In this document: in pieces, positions 2,899 through 59,404 of the stretch
Layout of the letters: the number at the start of each line of letters is the position of its first letter
How positions within the stretch are numbered: the stretch's first letter is position 1
Origin: Patescibacteria group bacterium
GTDB lineage: Bacteria; Patescibacteriota; Microgenomatia; Levybacterales; UBA12049
NCBI GenBank assembly: GCA_038064195.1
Contig: JBBTTO010000002.1
Span: 76,981 to 140,980 of the forward strand
DNA length: 64,000 nucleotides
Reading direction: 5' to 3'
Position numbers and translations under genes: made by a program
The notes under the pieces: model-generated
What the model was told of the DNA's origin: nothing
The model's database searches: none
What the model saw: only the letters and a program-made list of their open reading frames with translations

Positions 2899-2916
2899 TA
2901 AAATAGCTTCCCTAAT

Positions 2917-2990
2917 CCTCTTAACCAGATTTACGATGAAATAGACATTGTGATACGAGCCCAGACGTTGTGCGAGGAGCTCATCAACTA
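2917..2990. repeat. Degenerate duplicate of the tgt 3' coding end (39-bp perfect match, then about 75% identity over a further ~35 bp) lying in the intergenic space
   Basis: cttaaccagatttacgatgaaatagacattgtgatacga occurs at both 2918-2956 and 3969-4007. The flanking bases are still alignable. Confidence 0.6.
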
Positions 2991-3155
2991 TAAAAAGACA
3001 ACGAAAATACGCTCGAGTATGATACAGACAATTAGAAAACGTTCTATAAAGGCAAAATTATTTGGAGAACATTATCTAATATCGAAGAATAGCAAATAAA
3101 GATCAGAACAACCAACTATAGGATGAGCTGATGAGTTTGGAGTTTAAGTTAATCT

Positions 3156-3896: not shown

Positions 3897-5201
3897 TCAA
3901 GAAGCCCTTAATCTCCCAAGCCATTCAGCCTTGAGTTGCTGAAAAGACTCCTGAAGAATTGACTCCCTGATACGCTTAACCAGATTTACGATGAAATAGA
4001 CATTGTGATACGACCCGAGGCGCTGGGCGAGTAGTTCATCAGCCACGAACAGATGCCTGAGGTACGCCCGCGTATAGTGCTGACAGGTCAGACACTCACA
4101 CCCCGGATCGATGGGGTCTTGATCAAGCGCATATTTGGCATTAGTGATCTGGATAGTAAAGTTGTTTTCCTTCCGTCCACCATTCCCGGGAGATATATAC
4201 AAATTGCCATGTCTTCCTCTCCTGGTCGGGGCGACGCAGTCAAAAAAATCTATCCCCCGCGCCACCCCCTCAAAAAGATCTTCTACCTCGCCGATTCCGA
4301 GTAAGTGCCTCGGCTTATCATCCTGAAAATACGGCACGCACCAGTCAAGGACATTACGCAAAACTTGCTTTGAGGTATAGGATCCACCTATTGAGACAGC
4401 CGGGAAGTATTTATCGGTAAATTTTGCTGACTCGTGACGCAGATCTTCATAGTATCCCCCATGCACAACTCCATACATTAATTGATCCTGTCTTTTTTGC
4501 GCTGCAAGACTTGCTAGTGCCCATCTATTCGTCCGCTCAAGGGAGACTCTCGTCGTCTGATAGTCCCAGAGAGGCGACTCATGATCATCGAAGGCAACAA
4601 TGAGGTCTGCTCCCAACTTTTCCTGTGCCTGTATCGAGACATCCGCATCAAACCAGTGCTTTGACCCATCAATATGAGAATAAAACCACACCCCATCTTC
4701 ACTTATTTTGGCAGCTCTAAGCTTGTTAAGCTGCTTCTCCTCAGTCGTTTTGGTCACGGCTGGTAACAAGATGCTTTTCTCAATCGGGTCTGAAAAAACA
4801 GACTTTGAGAATTTACTCATCTTGCGCCCTTGACTATCCTTCAAAGTGACTTTTTTCTGGGCGACACCTAAAGAAAAGACCTGAAACCCTCCACTATCAG
4901 TCATGGTTGGTCCGCCTCGGATTGAAGAAGTCGAGACGGGCCCATTCCATCCCTGAAATTTTGCTAGTCCGCCTAATTTTTCAATAGTGTCGACTCCCGG
5001 TCGTAAAAAAAGATGATACGTATTGGAGAGGACGATTTGTGCCCCGATTGTCGCTAAATCCTGACTGGAAAGTGTTTTAACTGTGGCCTGAGTCCCAACC
5101 GGGTTAAAATGGGGGGTCAAAATATCACCGTGAGGAGTTGCGAGCCTTCCTGCTCTAGCCTTGGAACTTTTATCCTTTTGTAAAACTGAAAAATGAAACA
5201 T
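3897..5201 (-). CDS. tgt: Queuine tRNA-ribosyltransferase
   Basis: The N-terminal TPHGDILTPHFNPVGTQATVK matches the Tgt consensus. The zinc site CECLTCQHYTRAYLRHL (CxCxxC...H) is present. Confidence 0.85.
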   Translation of the reverse strand: MFHFSVLQKDKSSKARAGRLATPHGDILTPHFNPVGTQATVKTLSSQDLATIGAQIVLSNTYHLFLRPGVDTIEKLGGLAKFQGWNGPVSTSSIRGGPTMTDSGGFQVFSLGVAQKKVTLKDSQGRKMSKFSKSVFSDPIEKSILLPAVTKTTEEKQLNKLRAAKISEDGVWFYSHIDGSKHWFDADVSIQAQEKLGADLIVAFDDHESPLWDYQTTRVSLERTNRWALASLAAQKRQDQLMYGVVHGGYYEDLRHESAKFTDKYFPAVSIGGSYTSKQVLRNVLDWCVPYFQDDKPRHLLGIGEVEDLFEGVARGIDFFDCVAPTRRGRHGNLYISPGNGGRKENNFTIQITNAKYALDQDPIDPGCECLTCQHYTRAYLRHLFVADELLAQRLGSYHNVYFIVNLVKRIRESILQESFQQLKAEWLGRLRAS

Positions 5202-7411: not shown

Positions 7412-8944
7412 ATGTTGGCCAAGGTTTACTCTGGAGCCGTAATCGGACTTGACGCCGTACTCATTGAAGTTGAGATTGATATTGCCTCCCAAGGACTTCC
7501 TAATTTCACAATCGTTGGCCTGCCTGATAAAGCCGTTGAAGAGGCCAAAGAGCGCGTCCGCTCAGCCATACGTAACTCCGGAGCTGATTTTCCGGCCAGG
7601 CGGATCACTGTCAATTTGGCACCGGCTGATCTGCCAAAAGAAGGGCCCTCCTACGACCTGCCTATTGCGTTGGGGATACTTCTTGCCTCAGGTCAAATTC
7701 AAGCCGACGTCTCAAATGTCTTAGTCTCAGGCGAGTTAGCACTTGATGGCCGAATCCGTCCGATAACGGGAGTACTCTCTCAGGCGCTTTTGGCTCGCGA
7801 TCTGGGATTCAGTTCTTTTTACTTACCATCAGACAACGCCAAAGAGGCAGCCGTCATTGAGGACGTGACGATTCTCCCTGTCACAACTCTTCTGGAGCTT
7901 TTCAAACATCTCAGACAAGAAGCAGTTATTACACCACTTTCTGCTGCCCCAGAGCCCCTTGAAAAAGAGCTGATTTTTGAGTTTGATATGAAGGATATTA
8001 AAGGTCAGCACCAAGCCAAAAGAGCCTTAGAAATTGCAGCGGCTGGTGGCCACAATATCCTGATGAAAGGCCCACCCGGTGCAGGCAAGACACTCCTTGC
8101 CCGTACTCTGCCATCAATCCTGCCCCAGCTTACATTTTTTGAGGCAGTTGAGGTAACCAAGATCTATAGCATCGCGGGCATGCTCTCTAGTAAAGGGATC
8201 CTTTACGCAAGGCCTTTCCGCTCACCTCATCATACGACTTCCCTTGTCGGTCTGATTGGTGGCAGCAGTACGCCCCGCCCGGGTGAGATCACACTTGCTC
8301 ACCGCGGGGTATTATTCCTTGATGAATTTCCCGAGTTCCCCCGCAATGTTCTGGAGACACTTCGTCAACCGATTGAGGATGGCATTGTCCATATCGCTCG
8401 TGCCGCCGGCAAGGTCTCTTTTCCTGCCAAGTGCATGCTGGTAGCAGCTCAAAATCCCTGTCCATGCGGTTTTCTGGGAGATCCTAAAAAAGCCTGTATC
8501 TGTAATGCCAGCCAAATCAGTCGCTATCAGAAAAAAATCTCAGGTCCTCTACTTGACAGAATCGACATTCACTTAGATGTCCCGGCTGTGAAAGTAGAGC
8601 AATTAGTTGAGCAGTCAGATATATTGATTGAACCGTCAGAGGCTATACGCCAGCGAGTGCAAAAAGCCCGGGATCGTCAGACAAAGCGCTATCATGGGCG
8701 ATCCCTTATTAGCAACGCCGATCTCAGAAATAAAGATATTAAAGAATTCTGTGAGTTATCCAGTGCCTGTCTCACACTTCTCCAAACAGCCGTCACAAAA
8801 CTTAATCTTTCAGGCAGAGCCTATAATCGCACTATCAAAGTTGCCAGGACTATCGCCGACCTTGCAGAAAGTGAGATGCTTCAGCCTGAACATCTGGCCG
8901 AGGCATTACAATACAGAGCTAAAGAGCAGCGAGTGTTTGTTTGA
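7412..8944 (+). CDS. comM: Mg-chelatase-like AAA+ ATPase YifB/ComM
   Basis: The N-terminal Lon-like domain MLAKVYSGAVIGLDAVLIEVEIDIASQGLPNFTIVGLPD is present, followed by Walker A GPPGAGKT and C-terminal ChlI-like helices. Confidence 0.85.
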   Translation: MLAKVYSGAVIGLDAVLIEVEIDIASQGLPNFTIVGLPDKAVEEAKERVRSAIRNSGADFPARRITVNLAPADLPKEGPSYDLPIALGILLASGQIQADVSNVLVSGELALDGRIRPITGVLSQALLARDLGFSSFYLPSDNAKEAAVIEDVTILPVTTLLELFKHLRQEAVITPLSAAPEPLEKELIFEFDMKDIKGQHQAKRALEIAAAGGHNILMKGPPGAGKTLLARTLPSILPQLTFFEAVEVTKIYSIAGMLSSKGILYARPFRSPHHTTSLVGLIGGSSTPRPGEITLAHRGVLFLDEFPEFPRNVLETLRQPIEDGIVHIARAAGKVSFPAKCMLVAAQNPCPCGFLGDPKKACICNASQISRYQKKISGPLLDRIDIHLDVPAVKVEQLVEQSDILIEPSEAIRQRVQKARDRQTKRYHGRSLISNADLRNKDIKEFCELSSACLTLLQTAVTKLNLSGRAYNRTIKVARTIADLAESEMLQPEHLAEALQYRAKEQRVFV

Positions 8945-13215: not shown

Positions 13216-13725
13216 TTATTGCTTCAGCTTTAGCCCCATTTTACTTGAGAAAGCCTGCGCCAAGGCAACAGCTAAGGCGTCGGTCGTATCGTCAAGTTTG
13301 GGAATCTTCTCAAGCTTAAGAATTACCTTGACCATTTGGGCAATCTGCTTTTTCTCAGCATTGCCATAGCCTGTTACTGCCAGCTTGACTTGACTTGGGG
13401 CATGAGTCGCAACCGAAAGACCAGACTCGGCTGCTGCCAGGAGGATGACACCTCGTGCTTGTCCGACCATAAACGCCGTCGTCACATTGCGACTGAAAAA
13501 GAGTTCCTCAACTGCTACCACCTCAGGCTGATACGTTTTTATGAGTTCTTTAAGAGCTTTATAAATAATCAGTAACCGTTTTTCATCAGACATCCCAGTT
13601 GGTGTCTCAATACATCCATAGCTTATTGCTTTCTGCTTATTGCTTTCTGCTTCTATCACTCCCCACCCGAGTCTCCCAAGCCCAGGATCAACACCTAAGA
13701 TACGCATAAGGGCATTATAGTACAA
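13216..13725 (-). CDS. ruvC: Crossover junction endodeoxyribonuclease RuvC
   Basis: MRILGVDPGL matches the RuvC N-terminus, and the catalytic acidic residues are present. The likely start is the internal M at 13707. Confidence 0.85.
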   Translation of the reverse strand: MYYNALMRILGVDPGLGRLGWGVIEAESNKQKAISYGCIETPTGMSDEKRLLIIYKALKELIKTYQPEVVAVEELFFSRNVTTAFMVGQARGVILLAAAESGLSVATHAPSQVKLAVTGYGNAEKKQIAQMVKVILKLEKIPKLDDTTDALAVALAQAFSSKMGLKLKQ

Positions 13726-14959: not shown

Positions 14960-17167
14960 TTATTGAGTAGGCCAGGGTTCAATCATGATCGATTCTCCAT
15001 GTCCGGGCATCTTCTGATAGATTTCCTCTGTTACAAATGGCATGAAGGGATGCAGGAGCTTAATAAGTATTACGTATAAAGTAGTAAGTATTAAGTATGA
15101 ATTATCATCCATACGGTTTTTAACGTCCTCAATATATTTATCAGCGAACTCATGCCAGATAAACTCATACAGTCTCTCAGCCGCTAAATTAAACTGATAG
15201 TCATCAATATACCGCGTTATCTCTTTTACCAGCTGCTCAACCTTGTCCACCCACTCTCTATCAGTCGTGTTTTTTGCAGTCTTCTTTAATTCTTCAATAC
15301 TTAATACTTGATACTCAATACTTGATACTCGTTTCATCTCCAAAAAGCGTGCCATATTCCACAGCTTATTAGTGAATTTACGAGCTGCGTCCAGCTTGGG
15401 ATATGAGAGACTCTGATCATTACCTGTCGCATTACCATAAATGAGAGCAAAGCGTACGGCATCAGCTCCGTATTGCTCAATAAGCTCGAGCGGATTAATG
15501 ACATTCCCCTTGCTCTTACTCATCTTCTTTCCCAACGGATCATTGACGATACCGTGGAAAAGTACGTCTTTAAAAGGCACTTCACCTGTTCGATAAATCC
15601 CGAGCATCGCCATACGCGATACCCAAGCACGCAAAATATCATAGGCAGTCTCCAAAACTGCGGTCGGATAAAACTTCTCAAAGTCGCCGGGCTTTGCCGT
15701 CTGAAGCGTCACATAGGGCCACTGACCACTGGAGAACCAGGTGTCAAAGGTGTCAGAGTCTTGTTCTAATTTAGTTGAACTGCAAACTGGACATTTCTCT
15801 GGCTTCTCCCCTTCAGTCACAATCCATTCAGAATTATTGCTAAATTGCTCTATTGGTTCATTGTTAATTGCTTTCGAGTTTTGACTTGTGGTTTTGCGCT
15901 TTGCGCTTTGCGCTTTTGGCTCACTGCAATCTCTGCAACGCCAGGCAGGGATGCGCATACCCCAGACAATTTGACGTGAGATATTCCAATCCCTGAGATT
16001 CTCGAGCCACTGGAAATACTGTGTCTCAAAACTCTTTGGATGAATCCGTATTTTACCTTCCTTAACTGCCTTGACCGCCTCGTTTTTAAGTGATTCGACT
16101 TTGACAAACCACTGTTCAAGAGGAAGTGGCTCAAGAACTGTTTTACATTTATAACAAAGCCCTACACGATTGATATACCCTTCATCTATTTTTTCAATTA
16201 GTCCTTTGGCATGCATTTCCTCAATAATTGCACTTCGGGCTTGCTTCACATAAAGCCCGGCGAACTTTCCCGCATGTTCATTGAGCTTACCATCGAACCC
16301 TATAACTTGTTTCATCAGCAAATCATGTCGCTTGCCTATCTCAAAGTCATTAAAATCATGTGCAGGAGTGACTTTAACAACACCTGTCCCAAATTCAGGG
16401 TCTACCGCCTCATCTGCAACAACTCTAATAGTAGCTTTACCTAACACAGTCTCTATTTCTATGTCTTTACCGACATATTGTTTGTACCGCGCATCTTCGG
16501 GATGTACTGCTACCCCCGTATCACCAAATTTTGTCTCAGGACGAGTCGTAGCTAAGACCAATGGCCCGTACTTAATATAATAAAGAGGACTGTTACGCTC
16601 TTCGTGGGTGACTTCCAAGTCGGAAAAAGATGTCCCGTCTTTCGTGCAATAATTGACTAGTTTATACGCACGATAGACGAGCTTGTCATCGTGCATTTGT
16701 TTGAAGGTCTGATAAACCAGTTTTTGTATATCCGGATCGAGGGTAAATTTCTCACGCGACCAGTCAAGTGAAAAACCGAGTTTTCGGAGTTGATTCTCTA
16801 TCTTGCCGCCTGATTCACTCACAAACTCCCAGATCATTTGATAAAGCTGTTCCTGCGTATAGTCAAAGCGAGACTTACCTTCACTTTGAAGCTTCTTCTC
16901 GTAAACAAACTGCGTTTCAATTCCCGCATGATCTGTCCCGGGCAGCCAAAGCGTACTATCCCCCTTCATGCGGTGATAGCGAATCAGGATATCCTCAACC
17001 GTGAACATGGCATGACCGAAATGCAGGTCGCCGTTAGCATTAGGCGGGGGAAGGATAATACAATAGGGCTTACCATCAGGATGAATCTCAGGCTTGAAAT
17101 AGCCTTTTTCTTCCCATGTTTTATAGTGCTTATCCTCAACGTCTTTGTGGTTGTAGACTTTATCCAT
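14960..17167 (-). CDS. valS: Valine--tRNA ligase (short form, no C-terminal coiled-coil)
   Basis: PPPNANGDLHFGHA, GTDHAGIETQ and KMSKSKGNVI are present. A Cys-pair insertion region carries a low-complexity KAQSAKRK stretch. Confidence 0.9.
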   Translation of the reverse strand: MDKVYNHKDVEDKHYKTWEEKGYFKPEIHPDGKPYCIILPPPNANGDLHFGHAMFTVEDILIRYHRMKGDSTLWLPGTDHAGIETQFVYEKKLQSEGKSRFDYTQEQLYQMIWEFVSESGGKIENQLRKLGFSLDWSREKFTLDPDIQKLVYQTFKQMHDDKLVYRAYKLVNYCTKDGTSFSDLEVTHEERNSPLYYIKYGPLVLATTRPETKFGDTGVAVHPEDARYKQYVGKDIEIETVLGKATIRVVADEAVDPEFGTGVVKVTPAHDFNDFEIGKRHDLLMKQVIGFDGKLNEHAGKFAGLYVKQARSAIIEEMHAKGLIEKIDEGYINRVGLCYKCKTVLEPLPLEQWFVKVESLKNEAVKAVKEGKIRIHPKSFETQYFQWLENLRDWNISRQIVWGMRIPAWRCRDCSEPKAQSAKRKTTSQNSKAINNEPIEQFSNNSEWIVTEGEKPEKCPVCSSTKLEQDSDTFDTWFSSGQWPYVTLQTAKPGDFEKFYPTAVLETAYDILRAWVSRMAMLGIYRTGEVPFKDVLFHGIVNDPLGKKMSKSKGNVINPLELIEQYGADAVRFALIYGNATGNDQSLSYPKLDAARKFTNKLWNMARFLEMKRVSSIEYQVLSIEELKKTAKNTTDREWVDKVEQLVKEITRYIDDYQFNLAAERLYEFIWHEFADKYIEDVKNRMDDNSYLILTTLYVILIKLLHPFMPFVTEEIYQKMPGHGESIMIEPWPTQ

Positions 17168-41166: not shown

Positions 41167-42377
41167 GCGAACAGCTCCTTTCGTAATGCTTCCCGCGCGT
41201 CATGCGAGATGACTTCAATCGGGAGCATAATCTCCCCCTTGGCTTCAACCAGGACAGTCTCAAACTGATGAATCCCCTTAGGGTCTTCAAAACTCATGGT
41301 GTAGGCGCCATTGGCGAGTTTAGTAGCGGAGGCAAAGTGACCAAGCCCGTTGGTTTTAAAAGCGCGAACCGGGTTGTCGTCTTTATCTTTGAGCTCAACG
41401 AGTATATTTGGCAACACATTACCCCGGGCGTCTCTCACAATTCCCAGGACCACATTGGGGACATCCGGGATAGAGGGGAGTCCGAGGCTACTTGCTTTAT
41501 CAGTCGGAACAATTCTGACGTTTTGTGATGAGGCAAGAGGTTGATCAGGCACAGCTTGAGGTGTTGGCTGCTGTGGTTTGGTAGTTTGCTCTTTAAGTTT
41601 TAAGAGCTCCTGTTCGAGTTGTTGCTTTTGAGCCATGACATCACTGAGTTGTTTTTCAAGATCAGTCACGTGGGTATGTGTTTGGACGACAGGTTTATGC
41701 GCCTGCTCTAGCTGTTGTTCTTGCTGCATTGCCTCACTGAGTTCACGTTTGATTGCCTCAGCTTCTGCTTCTAATTCATGTTCCGCATCTAGGGGCGAGT
41801 GCATCATTTTTATACGCATAGCCTCATCGCTTGAGAGAGTATGTCCGATAGGGCCGGTATCTTCACTCAGCGTCAGCAGGCCCGGTTTGGCATTGGGGTC
41901 AAAAAGCGCAGTCATAAAGAAATCTTCCTTATCATCTAATTTGCTATGTGTTGAGCGGGTGAGTTGGGAGAGCATTTGCTTGAGCTGAACTTGTCTTGTC
42001 TCCTCAAGGGCAGTCACGCTTCCTTTCCTGTCTTTTTCCGGATGAGCGGGAAGCTTTTGGACACTAATAAGTGAGATAGCTAAATGACCGCCCGCCTGCT
42101 GGTAGAGATACTGCGTGGGTGCGAAGAGATCCTTAAAGAAATTGGCAATCATCAGGTCCATGGGGCGGCCTTCAATCGGCAAAAAAGCCAGAGCGGCTCC
42201 CATACCGATAAAGAAAGGGATAGTCAGTATTTTGACAAGGACAAAAATAGGCGCGTAGTAAAAAATAACCGCGATGATACTGCCTGTTGCCAGGAAGGCA
42301 AATTGTTTGACGGTCATGTTCCCGATCAGCTTGAACTGAAATCCGGTAACATCTTGTGGTATAGGATGGTTGTCCAT
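41163..42377 (-). CDS. Membrane protein: two N-terminal TM helices (VirB3-like topology), a Q/E-rich coiled coil and a C-terminal beta-sandwich (carboxypeptidase-regulatory-like) domain
   Basis: The TM pair lies at residues ~25-70. The coiled coil is EQQLEQAHK...QQLEQELLKLKEQ, followed by a C-terminal ~110-aa beta-rich domain. Confidence 0.45.
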   Translation of the reverse strand: MDNHPIPQDVTGFQFKLIGNMTVKQFAFLATGSIIAVIFYYAPIFVLVKILTIPFFIGMGAALAFLPIEGRPMDLMIANFFKDLFAPTQYLYQQAGGHLAISLISVQKLPAHPEKDRKGSVTALEETRQVQLKQMLSQLTRSTHSKLDDKEDFFMTALFDPNAKPGLLTLSEDTGPIGHTLSSDEAMRIKMMHSPLDAEHELEAEAEAIKRELSEAMQQEQQLEQAHKPVVQTHTHVTDLEKQLSDVMAQKQQLEQELLKLKEQTTKPQQPTPQAVPDQPLASSQNVRIVPTDKASSLGLPSIPDVPNVVLGIVRDARGNVLPNILVELKDKDDNPVRAFKTNGLGHFASATKLANGAYTMSFEDPKGIHQFETVLVEAKGEIMLPIEVISHDAREALRKELFA

Positions 42378-42570
42378 AGTTAATTAGTTCTCAATTTTCA
42401 CTGAGTTTTCAACTGAGAACTAAGAGATAGTCTTAACCACTGCCTTAATGAGAATCTATAGGGGTGGGCAGTGAAGAAGACACTCTAGTACTTACATGGT
42501 ATAACGTGAAAAATGTGCTTTCAAGGGCGTCAAAGTAGGTCAAAGCACCCTCTTACTGGATAAGATTTCC

Positions 42571-45983: not shown

Positions 45984-46361
45984 TTAACAAGGACTAGTAT
46001 TAGGTGATGAACAGTCCGGAGGATTTACGAGCATCGGGAAATTAAGAGAGCCTCCTGTGATCAGCTGGCCGACGAAGCCAATAATAAGGAAAGATAAAAG
46101 GGCTAATACTAGACCGACTATTGCATAGGTGAGTGTCCCACGCGCTGATTGAACTTTGGTCTTGTCACCGCCGGCTGTAATCCACTTGATGCCAGAGATG
46201 ATAATAAAGATGAGTGCTAAAACGAAGATAAAGAATAGGGCTACCTGAACTGCACGTTCTGCAATAATAATAAATATAGGTAGTCCACCTGTAGGTATCC
46301 CCTCGGGAACAGCTATTTTCTGGTTATCAATTGCGAGAGCGAGTAAGTGCTGCATAAGCAT
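45984..46361 (-). CDS. Pilin-like protein paralog (TM-GGDKTKVQSAR-TM)
   Basis: IISGIKWITAGGDKTKVQSARGTLTYAIVGLVLALL is present. Confidence 0.5.
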   Translation of the reverse strand: MLMQHLLALAIDNQKIAVPEGIPTGGLPIFIIIAERAVQVALFFIFVLALIFIIISGIKWITAGGDKTKVQSARGTLTYAIVGLVLALLSFLIIGFVGQLITGGSLNFPMLVNPPDCSSPNTSPC

Positions 46362-46373
46362 AGTGTATAGGAA

Positions 46374-46751
46374 TTAGTGCTCAGTGTGTAGTAGGCGCAT
46401 TTTTCGGACCAGTGAATTGAGCATGCGCAGTACTTCCTCAAGTAATGGAGTTATCTTTTCAAACTGTTCTTTAGATATATAGGTAAGCTCGTGACAAATG
46501 ATCAGCTGTGTCTCTAGCTCTAAAGCTGACCCATATGCTATCGCGTAAAATTGCGCGAACTCCCTAGATGATTTTCGGCCATATCCTTCGGCAATATTTG
46601 AGGGTATAGATACTGCAGCCCGTCGCATTTGCGAGACTAGACTATACATTTCATGATTGGGAAACCTTGATGTGATTTGGTAGATAGCCTTTACAAGCAA
46701 TATAGATTTTTGCCATACAATAAGATCCTTATAATTATGAATCTCACTCAT
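46374..46751 (-). CDS. Four-helix-bundle protein (family often encoded in 23S rRNA intervening sequences; TIGR02436-like)
   Basis: The 125-aa protein contains LIVWQKS...SIPSNIAEGYGR...ELETQLII, matching this family. Confidence 0.65.
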   Translation of the reverse strand: MSEIHNYKDLIVWQKSILLVKAIYQITSRFPNHEMYSLVSQMRRAAVSIPSNIAEGYGRKSSREFAQFYAIAYGSALELETQLIICHELTYISKEQFEKITPLLEEVLRMLNSLVRKMRLLHTEH

Positions 46752-46788
46752 CTTTGTGGTTTCTACACACTAATAACTACACACTTGC

Positions 46789-47958
46789 CTACTTAGTCAG
46801 TCCCGGGAGGTTGAGGAGATCAACTCCTATTACTTCCAGAATAATGATTGAGAGAACCAAAAACAAGAGGCCGACAAAGACAGAGGTGAGGCGTTCCCTG
46901 GCCTCTTTGACTTTCTCAGGATTGCCTTGAGAGGTCATGAGTTGATAGCCGCTGCGGATGATGAGAAGGAGGGCTATCCCGCCTGAGATACTCAGGAGGA
47001 TTGCAAAAAGCTGCCCGATAAAGCTAAAGGAGTCTGTATTAAGAGGTCCTATCGCACTCCAGATAGAAGTACAACCTTCGTTGGTGTTAAGTGTTTGAGC
47101 GCAAGGAGGAGGTGGGGGAAGAGGAGTTGGCGTAGGAAGACTCTTAGCTTGGTTAATCCAGATAGTAATTGGCTCAAGATATTGGTCATTGTCTCCATAA
47201 AGCACAATAGAGGTTGTCCCCTTACTAAAATCCTTTGGAAGAGTAAATATTACGCTACCACATGCATCCGTGTCGCATTTGGCTGTAGCGATTGCAGGTT
47301 CACCAAGAGCAGTTAAAACCAGATATTCTTTACTCGATGCGCCAGTAAGATGGATGCCGATGTCTTCTCCTGGTTGGGCAGGGTTATCTACCGCATTCGT
47401 CCTCCCATTCGTATTAAAAGCATCGATCATTTTATGATCAGTTGAGCCGCCACTCCCTTTGGTGACCACCGTAAATTTGTCTGCGGCAGGCGTGTCAGTG
47501 CCTTCCGAAGGTATTTTGTACACGCAGACGTGTAAGGTATTACTTCCATCATTTATATTATCCCCAATCTCTTGAGTACTTACCTGCCCTGAAAATGTAT
47601 TATTTGAACAAGAGGTATTGGTGAAATGCTGCGATGTTTTGTCGGGATCCATAATACATGTTCCATCGTCTGCTATACCAACTGTTTCTTGTGCAATAAT
47701 TATAGGTGCGGTGGTCTCGCAGGTCATGTTAGGGCCAAGAAGATTAATTACGTATGCCTCCGACTTTGGAATATTACCTAGCGAGATGTTGATAGGGTTG
47801 GGGTAGGTTACCGTCTGGTCGACTGAGAGGTTGCCCTGCATGCCTCCAACTGCTTCAGCAGTAAAGACCACCAGTGGATAAGGAATGATTATGCCTACTA
47901 AAAAGATGAGGGAATAGGAAAAACTTAGCAGGGATTTTTTCATACTTGTAATTATCAT
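46789..47958 (-). CDS. Pilin-like protein with a large N-terminal extracellular domain and Pro-rich linker (candidate tip or adhesin pilin)
   Basis: A signal peptide and ~280-aa N-domain are followed by a PTPTPLPPPPP linker and the shared C-terminal TM-QGNPEKVKEAR-TM module. Confidence 0.45.
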   Translation of the reverse strand: MIITSMKKSLLSFSYSLIFLVGIIIPYPLVVFTAEAVGGMQGNLSVDQTVTYPNPINISLGNIPKSEAYVINLLGPNMTCETTAPIIIAQETVGIADDGTCIMDPDKTSQHFTNTSCSNNTFSGQVSTQEIGDNINDGSNTLHVCVYKIPSEGTDTPAADKFTVVTKGSGGSTDHKMIDAFNTNGRTNAVDNPAQPGEDIGIHLTGASSKEYLVLTALGEPAIATAKCDTDACGSVIFTLPKDFSKGTTSIVLYGDNDQYLEPITIWINQAKSLPTPTPLPPPPPCAQTLNTNEGCTSIWSAIGPLNTDSFSFIGQLFAILLSISGGIALLLIIRSGYQLMTSQGNPEKVKEARERLTSVFVGLLFLVLSIIILEVIGVDLLNLPGLTK

Positions 47959-47976: not shown

Positions 47977-49344
47977 TTGCAATTTCTAGGTTTGGTGATG
48001 AAAGTATATTACAATAGTAGTATGGAATCGAAATACTTTGAGTCTCTTTATCCAGTAGAGGCGCGGGATCAGGAGCTCGAAAAAATTGTCGGGTATATCC
48101 GCGAAGGGGTCTCCTCTCAGGTAGTCGGATTGCCCGGAGTCGGGCGGAGTACCATACTCGGGCTTTTGGCATACAATCGTGAGATTCGTCTTCGGCATTT
48201 TCCCAAGTATCACGGAAGTATTCATTTCGTCATGGTCAATTTTTCAGAGGTCAAGACTCGCCCATACCCAGAAGTTGTCAAATTCCTCTTCCTGTGCCTG
48301 AGTAATTCACTGCGCGAGCGGGAAATGCCTGAGGAGTATGAACATGTAGATACGTTATTCAAAGAGGCTTTGAATTATAATGATGAGTTGGTGATCAGTC
48401 AGGGCCTCAAAAATGCTATCGAGTATCTGGCGGTTGAGAGGAAATTGACGCTGGTATTATTGTTTGATCGTTTTGATGAGTATATCCCTCAGGTATCCAT
48501 GGAGTTTTTTACGCTTCTCCGCAGCCTTCGGGATCGGGCCAAATATCGTTTTTCAGTGGTCTTTTCACTCGACCGTCCCCTTGAGGAGACAGTAGAGCCC
48601 TCCTTAGTGGCAGATTTCAGCGACTTTATCAGCGGACATGTGATCTATCTTCCGCTTCTTGATGAGCCAAGTAGCTCCTTCAGGCTATCCTATCTGGAGA
48701 AATTAACTGCCAAGACATTGTCTGTTGAGCAAAAAAAAGAGGTCCTAAGACTGACTGCCGGCCATATTCGACTCCTCAAAGTCGCAGCTGAGGCGATGCT
48801 AGCTGAAGGTACGATACCGGCTGATATTGAGGCATTTTTACTTTCGCAAAAGACTGTCCATGGAGCGCTCATGAGCATCTGGAAGAGTCTGACTCCAGGT
48901 GATCAAGTCGATTTAAGTAAGGGTGAGATCCATGACCACCAGGGGGAGAGTTATTTACAAAAGGTGGGTCTTTTGGAGGGGGACCGGATTACGATTCCGC
49001 TTTTCGCCAAAGCGCTTGCGGACAAGCTTTTTCAGGAAAATGAAGCCAAAATAGTTTATGACGAGGCGGCAAATATTATCAAAAAAGGTGATCTAGTCCT
49101 CTCAGACAGCCTGACCAAGGCTGAGTTTCGTCTCCTTCGCTATTTGCTCCAGCACCCACAGGAGATCGTGGATCGTGAGACGGTGATCAGTGAAGTTTGG
49201 CAGGAGGCAAAGACTACACTTGGTGTGACTGAGCAGGCTGTCGACCAGCTGATTTTTCGTCTCAGGCATAAGATTGAAGAAGATCCCAATAATTCAAGGC
49301 ATTTGTTAACTATAAAAGGAAGAGGAATAAAATTTATGCCTTGA
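47977..49344 (+). CDS. Putative regulator: P-loop NTPase-like domain (Walker A with Arg in place of Lys, GLPGVGRST) plus a C-terminal OmpR/PhoB-type winged helix; paralog of 17227-18537
   Basis: The C-terminus VISEVWQEAKTTLGVTEQAVDQLIFRLRHKIEE...LLTIKGRGIKF matches the Trans_reg_C family. The N-domain resembles AAA/ORC-like ATPases. Confidence 0.55.
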   Translation: MQFLGLVMKVYYNSSMESKYFESLYPVEARDQELEKIVGYIREGVSSQVVGLPGVGRSTILGLLAYNREIRLRHFPKYHGSIHFVMVNFSEVKTRPYPEVVKFLFLCLSNSLREREMPEEYEHVDTLFKEALNYNDELVISQGLKNAIEYLAVERKLTLVLLFDRFDEYIPQVSMEFFTLLRSLRDRAKYRFSVVFSLDRPLEETVEPSLVADFSDFISGHVIYLPLLDEPSSSFRLSYLEKLTAKTLSVEQKKEVLRLTAGHIRLLKVAAEAMLAEGTIPADIEAFLLSQKTVHGALMSIWKSLTPGDQVDLSKGEIHDHQGESYLQKVGLLEGDRITIPLFAKALADKLFQENEAKIVYDEAANIIKKGDLVLSDSLTKAEFRLLRYLLQHPQEIVDRETVISEVWQEAKTTLGVTEQAVDQLIFRLRHKIEEDPNNSRHLLTIKGRGIKFMP

Positions 49345-49389
49345 AGTTAAAATTCGAATATCAAAGCACGAAATCCGAAATAAATCCTA

Positions 49390-49755
49390 ATGACCCAAGA
49401 ACAAATTACAAAACTTTATGATTTAGAAGAACGAACATTTGTGTTTGCGAAAGACACGAGATCGTTTGTTAAAAAGCTCCCCAAAACAGTAGGTAACATC
49501 GAAGATGGCTCACAACTCATCCGTTCTTCTGGCTCGGTAGGCGCTAATTATATCGAGGCAAATGAAGCATTTAGCAAAAAGGACTTTCTAATGAGAACAA
49601 AGATTTGTAGAAAAGAAGCAAAGGAGAGCAGGTTTTGGCTACGTCTGGTAGATACAAAAGACGATCCTCTACTTGAAAAGGAAAGAATAAGGTTAATAGC
49701 TGAGGCAACAGAATTGATGAATATTTTCGGTGCGATTATTAGAAAATCTGAATAA
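49390..49755 (+). CDS. Four-helix-bundle protein (23S IVS protein family), second copy
   Basis: The 121-aa protein contains GSVGANYIEANEAFSKKDF, typical of the family. Confidence 0.65.
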   Translation: MTQEQITKLYDLEERTFVFAKDTRSFVKKLPKTVGNIEDGSQLIRSSGSVGANYIEANEAFSKKDFLMRTKICRKEAKESRFWLRLVDTKDDPLLEKERIRLIAEATELMNIFGAIIRKSE

Positions 49756-49939
49756 CTATTAGTTTTGAGAATTTATATTTTGAATTTGTTTCGAGTTTCG
49801 ATATTCGTATTTCGGATTTAAACCTCGACTTATCAGCGTAGTTCTGCGTAATATTCTGTAAGGTTCCGCGATTTGCCTTGTAAGGTATCTAAAAGGTTGT
49901 TATCAAGTGAAAAAAGGGGAATACAGGTAGACTGTCCCC

Positions 49940-56763: not shown

Positions 56764-57192
56764 ATGAAATTAGAATTCTCAGCCGGCGGTATCGTCGTAA
56801 AAAAAGAAGGCAATAAAATTTCTGTGCTGATCTGTCAGCACTCACGTTATAATCACTTAGGCTTTCCCAAAGGTCATATCGGGGATAAGATTAAAGGTGA
56901 GACAAAGGAGCAAGCGGCAGTTAGAGAGGTAAAAGAAGAAACAGGCGCTGAAGCAGTAATTCTTAAAGAGCTGAAGCCCATCACCTATTTTTATACGTTT
57001 GAAGGAGAAAAGCGCAAAAAAACAGTCTATTTTTTCTTAATGAAATATAGAGGCGGGGATATCACGAAGCATGATTTTGAGACGGAGAAAGTAGAATGGA
57101 TTCCCGCCCCCGATGTGGTAAAGGTTATTACCTATAAAGATGAAAAAGAAGCTTTTATTGAGTCACAAAAGTATTTTGAGATATTAATTTAA
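56764..57192 (+). CDS. NUDIX hydrolase
   Basis: The Nudix box GFPKGHIGDKIKGETKEQAAVREVKEETG fits the Gx5Ex7REUxEExGU pattern. The start is set at the internal M because the longer ORF would overlap the upstream tRNA. Confidence 0.7.
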   Translation: MKLEFSAGGIVVKKEGNKISVLICQHSRYNHLGFPKGHIGDKIKGETKEQAAVREVKEETGAEAVILKELKPITYFYTFEGEKRKKTVYFFLMKYRGGDITKHDFETEKVEWIPAPDVVKVITYKDEKEAFIESQKYFEILI

Positions 57193-57199
57193 TAATTAA

Positions 57200-57255
57200 G
57201 GAGGAGTCGTCCACTAAAGGGACTATCCACCATTTTGAATTTATTTAACAATCAA
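57200..57255 (+). repeat. Conserved ~56-bp tRNA-Ser leader containing a partial copy of the tRNA 5' end (ggaggagtcg) plus tccactaaagggactatcc; second copy at 59257-59312
   Basis: ggaggagtcgtccactaaagggactatcc is identical at both loci. It is followed by AT-rich tttaacaat and then the real tRNA start ggaggagtcg. Confidence 0.55.
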
Positions 57256-57339
57256 GGAGGAGTCGGATAGTGGTCCATTCCACGCGCTTGGAAAGCGCGC
57301 GGGCGTAAGCCCACGTGGGTTCAAATCCCACCTCCTCCG
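57256..57339 (+). tRNA. tRNA-Ser (anticodon GGA)
   Basis: Acceptor ggaggag/ctcctcc, anticodon stem cgcgc/gcgcg with loop ttGGAaa, variable arm cgggcgtaagccc, T-loop gttcaaatc. Confidence 0.75.
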
Positions 57340-59136: not shown

Positions 59137-59256
59137 TAGCTCAGTATAGCAAGAAAGCTAAGGATCAGAGTTGATCAAGATCACAAGGGAATATTGATAA
59201 GTACTCAGAGCAAGTATGGCTTAGGTATGTTCTAGATGGTATAATTAACCACTCTT

Positions 59257-59312
59257 GGAGGAGTCGTCCACTAAAGGGACTATCCGCTATTTTTAATTAA
59301 TTTAACAATTTA
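59257..59312 (+). repeat. Second copy of the tRNA-Ser leader repeat
   Basis: See 57200-57255. Confidence 0.55.
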
Positions 59313-59404
59313 GGAGGAGTCGCATAGCTTGGTCCATTGCGGAGGGTTGCTATCCCTCTGAGCTTTTAAAAGGGCTCGCGCAGGTTCAAATCCTGTCTCC
59401 TCCG
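59313..59404 (+). tRNA. tRNA-Ser (anticodon GCU), long variable arm
   Basis: Acceptor ggaggag/ctcctcc, anticodon stem gaggg/ccctc with loop ttGCTat, variable arm gagcttttaaaagggctc, T-arm gcagg-ttcaaat-cctgt. Confidence 0.75.

Follow-up and report, generated by a model that had tools for sequence, protein, structure and literature searches.

We analysed a 64-kb stretch of DNA (the window), part of a 1.08-Mb contig of the groundwater Patescibacteria genome Hain_H52, in which an open reading frame (ORF) at 46374..46751 on the minus strand encodes a 125-aa four-helix-bundle (4HB) protein, here called 4HB_A, between two pilin genes. The gene is enclosed by arrays of degenerate heptamers, the downstream array being complementary to the upstream one. 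Considering this arrangement together with the layout found around other genes of the family, we think it probable that the unit, designated cassette A, is a free-standing, promoterless 4HB cassette of the type known from intervening sequences (IVSs) of 23S rRNA, in which the gene occupies the loop of an inverted-heptamer hairpin, and that it resides in a pilin operon.

Inverted heptamer arms of cassette A

The initial annotation had noticed that the gene is bracketed by a 9-mer and its reverse complement. We found CTACACACT exactly at 46763-46771 and 46777-46785, one base below the positions first given in each case (46764 and 46778), and its reverse complement at 46383-46391 within tcagtgtgtagtagg (46381-46395), where it had been correctly placed. 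These are the only three exact matches in the window, both strands counted, and a further copy with one mismatch lies at 46362-46370; by our own arithmetic, a random 9-mer is expected about 0.5 times in 128 kb. Inverted repeats longer than 9 nt were also present, one with 18-nt arms (83% complementary) and one with 17-nt arms (82%). Each 9-mer is a piece of a degenerate heptamer array; on the sense strand of the gene, these arrays read (N4TAG)n upstream and (CTAN4)n downstream. The 5′ arm (46763..46791, minus strand) reads TAG GCAAGTGTG TAG TTAT TAG TGTG TAG in the sense orientation and takes in the TAG stop codon of the upstream pilin gene, relative to which its TAGs lie in frames 0, 0, 1 and 2. 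The 3′ arm (46355..46395, minus strand) is made of CTA-phased heptamers, with the C of CTA at 46394, 46391, 46377, 46370 and 46363 (spacings of 3, 14, 7 and 7), and it covers the final 7 codons of 4HB_A together with the spacer of 12 nt, reaching the AUG of the next pilin gene (46361-46359).

The end-to-end fold that the initial annotation had proposed was run on the sense strand, and the minimum-free-energy (MFE) structure contained a 26-bp terminal stem (15+8+3 bp) formed by 46791..46763 on the 5′ side and 46386..46355 on the 3′ side. The predicted stem spans from the stop codon of the upstream pilin to the AUG of the downstream pilin and includes both. When the fold was repeated in an 831-nt context, 26 of the 26 stem pairs were kept in the MFE structure with a mean pair probability of 0.78, and the outer 15 bp had pair probabilities of 0.86-1.0. 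Flank complementarity ranked 4HB_A first among the 54 genes of the window (−39.8 kcal/mol vs a mean of −20.9, sd 7.0), and a shuffled downstream arm matched the observed duplex energy in 1 of 100 shuffles. Fold z-scores for whole segments were not significant (−1.18 for cassette A; the other value was −0.21); the signal is confined to the terminal stem. Rfam detected no known RNA family over cassette A or over cassette B, a second unit described below, but only sub-threshold chance matches. The arms of cassette A are real but weak, short and eroded for the family.

The protein itself matched PF05635 (23S rRNA-intervening sequence protein) along all 106 positions of the profile (E=5.9e-43; 145.8 bits, cut-off 33.8), TIGR02436 'four helix bundle protein' (E=2.5e-40; 137.1 bits, cut-off 24) and NF008911 (147.2 bits, above the cut-off of 137); the first two matches bear out its initial description as a 125-aa four-helix-bundle protein of the 23S-IVS type. 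The nearest solved structure by sequence is 2GSC (XCC0516; E=1.4e-22), and 2RLD is also similar. 4HB_A carries the motif R-x3-S-x3-N-x2-E, reported as conserved in the family (PMC3936711), with R44 and I49-P50-S51-N52-I53-A54-E55-G56 invariant in an alignment of 30 sequences. Since its dN/dS relative to orthologues was 0.08-0.2 in the comparisons with unsaturated dS, the protein is maintained by purifying selection.

Both flanking pilin genes lie on the minus strand together with 4HB_A. The upstream gene (46789..47958) encodes a large pilin of the type IV secretion system (T4SS) type (PF18895; 389 aa), and its stop codon precedes the start of 4HB_A by 37 nt; the downstream gene (45984..46361) encodes a small T4SS-type pilin of 125 aa and starts 12 nt after the 4HB_A stop codon. 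A promoter-like site was found at 47982-47954 on the minus strand, by the start of the large pilin gene, and no promoter-like or terminator-like site was detected on that strand in the spacers on either side of 4HB_A. Among homologues of the large pilin, only the C-terminal quarter (the PF18895 domain) is conserved, and the N-terminal three quarters are hypervariable, even in the closest relative (L092, introduced below).

Family-wide layout and orthologous sites

Among 8000 candidates scored in a homologue search, at least 7999 family matches passed E ≤ 0.001. From a scan of species-representative genomes, 80 loci were obtained, with identities of 47-62%, and their flanks were surveyed; the loci belong to Patescibacteria, Bacteroidota, Planctomycetota, Nitrospirota and further phyla. 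The mean duplex energy of the flanks was −48.8, compared with −34.7, −30.5 and −39.2 for shifted controls from the same loci (Wilcoxon p ~1e-10) and with −31.8 when flanks were paired across loci (p = 1e-20); 77% of 70 loci lay above the 95th percentile of control alignment scores. The flank arrays are tandem, with a period of 7 or, more rarely, 8, and lag 7 scored best in 35 of 68 upstream flanks and in 31 of 69 downstream flanks, as against 5/68 and 5/67 in distant controls. Their repeat unit is locus-specific (GGTCGTA, GGCAATG, CAGATGC and TAGCGTC are examples), and the downstream array of a locus carries it in reverse complement. TAG was enriched 6.45-fold upstream and CTA 4.3-fold downstream in the sense orientation, mostly at spacing 7, and the arrays were polar, with at least three TAGs upstream in 44 loci vs CTA upstream in 12. 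Neighbouring genes were usually co-directional with the 4HB gene (upstream 59/64, downstream 57/65, both in 49/61 loci), at median gaps of 54 and 40 nt. Taken together, the TAG/CTA polarity and the co-orientation of neighbours point to a strand-specific role, which may be exerted by RNA or by single-stranded DNA. The same gene-plus-array layout adjoins unrelated genes in many phyla; the rRNA motifs searched for were absent from every locus of the survey, and no homologue of the 4HB gene was found in the phage collection.

TAG arrays in the surveyed loci were separated from the following CTA array by distances with a bimodal distribution, either below 50 nt (~21 hairpins) or 350-450 nt (73 pairs). 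The shorter class corresponds to ORF-less hairpins of 70-100 nt with the structure (N4TAG)n-loop-(CTAN4)n, which are frequent near 4HB genes in many genomes (for example L073 369-457; L012 1592-1683; L043 921-1002 and 1538-1606; L022 696-761, 843-906 and 1307-1372; L099 2573-2654 and 6633-6694; and others). They look like forms of the cassette of the miniature inverted-repeat transposable element (MITE) type, or footprints of it.

Genomes related to that of the window keep the same locus order (regulator, large pilin, 4HB gene, small pilins, a gene of ~685 aa and a PrgI-family gene), and 4HB genes occupy up to three fixed places in these loci, sites A, B and C. At site A, the position of cassette A, the same 4HB type was found in several genera, at 77% identity in L097, 73% in L098, 64% in L094/L095 and 62% in L096. 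The arrays of L097 and L098 are homologous to those of the window (AGTGGGT AGTAATT ... upstream, CTACTACACACT ... downstream), with ~14 repeat units upstream of the gene in L098, and L094 and L096 have units of their own (AGNNNGT and CGTNTAG), each with its complement downstream. The initial annotation had named the absence of inverted repeats from relatives that keep the gene as evidence against its proposal; the repeats are retained in L097, L098, L094 and L096. Arm complementarity was significant in a shuffle test in 9 of the 11 cassettes tested, and unit numbers differed between relatives by slippage-like steps. Because the same 4HB type stands at the same site in several genera (62-77%) under purifying selection, the copy in the window is a long-standing resident that has been maintained, rather than one inserted recently.

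The closest relative, L092, whose regulator is 87% and whose small pilins are 71-72% identical to those of the window, differs at all three sites. Its site A 4HB protein is 39% identical to 4HB_A over 28 aa, but 49% identical to the type found at site B of the window, so that L092 holds a different cassette at site A; its site B also carries a 4HB type different from that of the window. The replaceable units, which have no DNA similarity to L092 by blastn, extend over 46380..46789 (minus strand) at site A, with conserved pilin sequence on both sides, and over 49337..49924 (plus strand) at site B. ORFs of both L092 and the window extend into the 3′ array and take their stop codon from there.

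Site C provided a case of presence and absence. Where L092 has a 4HB_C gene, the 5′ leader of the PrgI-family gene in the window carries an ORF-less heptamer hairpin (42376..42440, minus strand; core arms 42384-42396 / 42411-42423) consisting of two abutting arrays (13+8 bp, −18 kcal/mol, z = −2.67). The 406 nt of L092 that contain 4HB_C (8078-8483) form a clean insertion between window bases 42411 and 42410, downstream of a sequence block, tttgacctactttgacgcccttgaaagcacatttttcacgttatacc. Judged from these sequence comparisons, cassette units were shown to be exchanged, lost or gained at hairpin sites. The initial annotation had called for strain variants lacking the insertion: 11 contigs (L001-L011), each matching the window at 99.9% identity or more and encoding the same protein or one with 99% identity, showed neither an empty site nor arm variation. 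Its suggestion of a small mobile cassette is supported as regards replacement and presence or absence in L092; no transposition mechanism, target-site duplication or near-identical copy was found.

Cassette B of the window encodes 4HB_B (49390..49755, plus strand), a 121-aa protein of a different subtype, 23% identical to 4HB_A (PF05635, E=3.3e-11; TIGR02436, E=2.2e-18). Its 5′ arm (49350..49382, plus strand) consists of GAAATCC/GAAATAA-type heptamers and its 3′ arm (49789..49819, plus strand) reads TTTCGAG TTTCGAT ATTCGTA TTTCGGA TTT, giving inverted repeats at 49350-73/49789-812 (24 nt, 83%) and 49371-82/49808-19 (12 nt, 100%). The arms have period 7 (lag-7 autocorrelation 0.49), and their unit, GAAATCC / TTTCGGA, is unrelated to that of cassette A. 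The 4HB_B gene of one population variant (L002 1-363, ERZ1300416 NODE_74) is fragmented by three single-base gaps, which reflect either a decaying allele or an assembly error.

Two further observations concern these sites. The tttgacctactttgacgcccttgaaagcacatttttcacgttatacc block, which is ~50 nt long and lies upstream of the PrgI-family gene, is conserved in three genera (window 42445-42545, minus-strand sense; L092 7925-8040; L094 5990-6060) and is probably the promoter or leader of the PrgI-family operon. At site A, L092 has kept ACTACTCACTAATTCCTATACACTAT (4000-4057) downstream of its own AATTT-type 3′ array; this sequence is homologous to the CTA-type 3′ array of the window, has no complementary partner upstream in L092, and may have been left by a cassette since replaced or else be conserved as the leader of the pilin gene.

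Proposed mechanism and alternative explanations

According to the interpretation that we favour, cassette A would be transcribed within the pilin operon transcript, on which its arms would pair into a stem of ~26 bp bringing the end of the upstream cistron together with the start of the next one and burying the AUG of the downstream pilin. By analogy with the heptamer stem of the Coxiella IVS, this duplex would be a substrate of RNase III, and cleavage would excise the 4HB segment from the host transcript. Alternatively, ribosomes finishing the 4HB ORF, the last codons of which lie in the 3′ arm, could open the stem and thereby couple translation to the next pilin. The TAG-phased 5′ array would place a stop codon in each of the three frames immediately ahead of the 4HB gene. 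A search of the 64 kb for signature motifs of RNase III (rnc) found none.

Several results weigh against this interpretation. The arm alignment score of cassette A reached only the 91st percentile relative to flanks paired across loci, and shuffling gave no significance for the arms of cassette B (z = −1.2). In L092, the outer portion of the 3′ arm of cassette A (46362-46379) is conserved as a pilin leader with no complementary partner, and this portion may be kept for that role rather than as a stem arm. Neither a target-site duplication nor a direct repeat was present at the junctions of the site C insertion, the one clean insertion, and no recombinase and no near-identical second copy, the latter sought within the window, were found. 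Complementary arrays are missing in Nostoc L100, Calothrix L101 and L094_C. Plasmid homologues are mostly cyanobacterial, and in the two inspected (L100, Nostoc sp. PCC 7120 plasmid gamma; L101, a Calothrix plasmid) the arrays were non-complementary in one (ACTTCAA upstream, CTTCTGC downstream) and limited to the 3′ side in the other; because these copies depart from it, the inverted layout is common yet not universal in the family. Finally, cleavage by RNase III, and even co-transcription with the pilins, are steps that we infer.

It is also conceivable, but unlikely in our judgement, that the element acts purely at the DNA level, the RNA stem being a by-product. The arrays would then either mark the ends of a cassette that is mobile or prone to recombination, or have arisen by hairpin-templated repair and slippage. 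Mismatches between the arms showed no excess of the G.U type on the sense strand (63 vs 61 of the A.C type) and therefore give no pointer to selection on sense RNA over a DNA-level inverted repeat. This explanation would also fit the slippage-like shifts in unit number between relatives, seen in Coxiella as well (PMC4990558), the replacement or absence of cassettes at array boundaries, and the resemblance of ORF-less hairpins to non-autonomous derivatives. By contrast, the polarity of the arrays relative to the ORF and the co-direction of the gene with both neighbours weigh against it, because a plain double-stranded inverted repeat requires neither. The homologous Coxiella stem is, moreover, an RNase III substrate in vitro (PMC4990558), and no target-site duplication, transposase or multicopy identity was found.

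The recurrence of 4HB genes at three fixed positions of the locus, the presence of the same type after the large pilin gene in L094/L095, L096, L097 and L098, and the purifying selection on the protein would all be expected if 4HB_A were a domesticated part of the pilus or T4SS-like apparatus, working with the pilins or the regulator. The arrays would then be regulator-binding sites, bound perhaps by the 4HB pentamer or by the adjacent winged-helix ATPase regulator, as paired inverted tandem repeats in operon spacers of Geobacter have been read (PMC2700814). We consider this quite improbable: sites A and B of L092 hold other 4HB types, the gene of site C is missing altogether from the window, and the same layout occurs beside unrelated genes in many phyla and inside cas operons (PMC3936711). 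The repeat unit also varies by locus, which a single sequence-specific regulator would not tolerate.

Chance similarity within low-complexity intergenic DNA deserves mention, since inverted matches of 9 bp within ~400 nt are not in themselves rare, the whole segment of cassette A is not unusually stable when folded (z = −1.18), and its arms exceed cross-locus pairings only to the percentile given above. All three exact 9-mers of the 64 kb are nevertheless located at 4HB_A, the flanks of which rank first of 54, and the period of 7 with TAG/CTA phasing is common to the family; homologous arrays are retained in L097 and L098. Chance is very improbable, and the family-wide flank complementarity, the TAG/CTA enrichment and the arrays kept in orthologues in effect reject it. 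Least credible of all is the possibility that 4HB_A is Avd, the accessory protein of a diversity-generating retroelement (DGR). Weak matches to bAvd (PF22296, 35.7 bits) and NF033474 (32.7 bits) were obtained, but both scores lie under the curated cut-offs (40 and 80 bits), the neighbours are pilins and a regulator by Pfam rather than a reverse transcriptase, and the repeat search of the window revealed no pair of template and variable repeats (TR/VR). On these three grounds the DGR explanation was rejected.

A broader proposal, which goes beyond cassette A and which we offer tentatively, is that a widespread family of hairpin elements has operon spacers, leaders and rRNA helices as its landing places, and that 4HB genes with inverted N4TAG/CTAN4 arrays represent its autonomous form. 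Hairpins lacking an ORF would be its non-autonomous or footprint forms and the 23S IVSs a special case, while the pentameric 4HB protein might recognise or maintain the arrays. Within this proposal, the unexplained paired heptamer arrays of Geobacter, Xanthomonas and cyanobacteria may likewise be non-autonomous or footprint forms.

Relation to known elements and further repeats of the window

We know of no function for the very large PF05635/TIGR02436 family outside the Avd protein of DGRs. For 30 years the 23S IVSs have been described as selfish elements whose origin is unknown, and the heptamer repeats of bacteria also lack an explanation. If the shared architecture is correct, it would link the 4HB family, the 23S IVSs and the heptamer repeats as a gene-in-hairpin that is exchanged as a unit in operons and rRNA alike. 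In practical terms, 4HB cassettes are found within operons of pilin and cas genes, where they can be taken wrongly for components that work with these systems.

The closest parallel is with ORF-bearing 23S IVSs, such as those of Coxiella and Leptospira, which likewise measure ~430 nt and carry an ORF of the same family in the loop. The IVS of Coxiella burnetii (428-444 nt) lies in helix 45 of 23S rRNA and contains an S23p ORF; its terminal stem has 28 bp with one mismatch and one bulge and is cut within the stem by RNase III in vitro, and its 5′ arm consists of 2-3 tandem GACAGAT heptamers, the number of which varies among strains, with cleavage at the first repeat (PMC4990558). Thus, cassette A and the Coxiella IVS have in common a terminal stem of 26-28 bp with a mismatch or bulge and a 5′ arm of tandem heptamers variable in number. 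The likeness to the 23S IVS stem suggested by the initial annotation was confirmed in that both stems are built of heptamer arrays, and the 26 bp of cassette A exceed the stem of at least 20 bp enclosing the element by which an IVS is recognised. Unlike 23S IVSs, however, cassette A stands between protein-coding genes (PF18895 pilins) and not in helix 9, 25 or 45 of the rRNA; no rRNA was detected by Rfam anywhere in the 64 kb. 4HB_A is under purifying selection, unlike the ORF of Coxiella, which is reported to be decaying and unexpressed (PMC4990558), and cleavage by RNase III, demonstrated for the Coxiella IVS, would apply to cassette A by extension.

Compared with mobile elements in the narrower sense, the cassettes agree with transposons and MITEs in their presence or absence at orthologous site C and in their ORF-less derivatives, but not in target-site duplication, which was absent from the junctions of the site C insertion, or in near-identical copies with conserved ends, none of which was seen in the 64 kb examined. 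Correia elements, which are co-transcribed with operons and cut by RNase III, are multicopy, conserved in sequence, flanked by a target duplication and devoid of an ORF. The cassettes resemble these Neisseria elements as inverted repeats in operon spacers whose hairpins are processed in mRNA, a processing that for the cassettes is predicted; they differ in that their arms are locus-specific, heptameric and enclose a gene. Integron gene cassettes, too, have a promoterless co-directional ORF and an imperfect, recombination-prone inverted repeat (attC) that is conserved in structure and not in sequence, but both attC arms lie 3′ of the ORF and an integrase and attI are needed, whereas the arms described here lie on either side of the ORF and an integrase is absent. 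Phages have free-standing homing-endonuclease genes that are similar in being small, optional genes between conserved neighbours that are present, absent or replaced in relatives; unlike them, the 4HB protein has no known nuclease domain, and those genes have no flanking inverted arrays. As for Avd of DGRs, the fold and family are homologous (PF05635 superfamily, pentameric four-helix bundles), and 4HB_A may form a pentamer, given its sequence similarity to 2GSC and 2RLD, but the cassette locus has no reverse transcriptase or TR/VR repeats and its score is under the equivalog cut-off.

Tandem heptamers have been described in other bacteria, as TAACTGA arrays in Beggiatoaceae (PMC4679880), as convergent pairs of GGGAATC arrays in Xanthomonas (PMC4692102) and, together with octanucleotides, as paired inverted tandem arrays catalogued in Geobacter metallireducens (PMC2700814). 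The cassette arms share with these and with the cyanobacterial STRR-type repeats a 7-8-nt period, a position in operon spacers, an orientation that is often toward the downstream ORF, richness in stop codons, and frequent occurrence as inverted pairs at variable distance. By contrast, the known repeats have one genome-dominant unit, whereas each 4HB cassette has its own. None of the three papers on the Beggiatoaceae, Xanthomonas and Geobacter repeats (PMC4679880, PMC4692102, PMC2700814) mentions 4HB (PF05635) genes. Earlier work recorded PF05635 genes in the midst of cas genes (PMC3936711) and, in candidate phyla radiation (CPR) bacteria, inside insertions in rRNA. A full-text literature search, which excluded most subscription journals and the notes of database curators, returned no statement that inverted heptamer arrays generally flank PF05635 genes.

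Repeats were also observed elsewhere in the window. The strongest local inverted repeat is formed by heptamer arrays at 15066-15098 / 15297-15329 (33 nt, 82% complementary, 198 nt apart), which lie within a valyl-tRNA-synthetase-like coding sequence (14960..17167, minus strand) and are open in one frame only; by eye, the segment between them resembles native synthetase sequence. Tandem heptamers are found in frame in housekeeping genes as well, namely TGCTTTC x3.7 in a RuvC-like gene (13621-13652) and TTTGCGC x3.4 in the synthetase gene (15893-15916), and heptamer arrays in this genome are therefore not limited to 4HB cassettes. Two direct repeats are unrelated to the cassettes: one of 129 nt with 76% identity (2902-3030 and 3957-4085), and one of 86 nt with 84% identity (57185-57270 and 59242-59327), which ends about where two tRNA genes begin (matches from 57256 and 59313).

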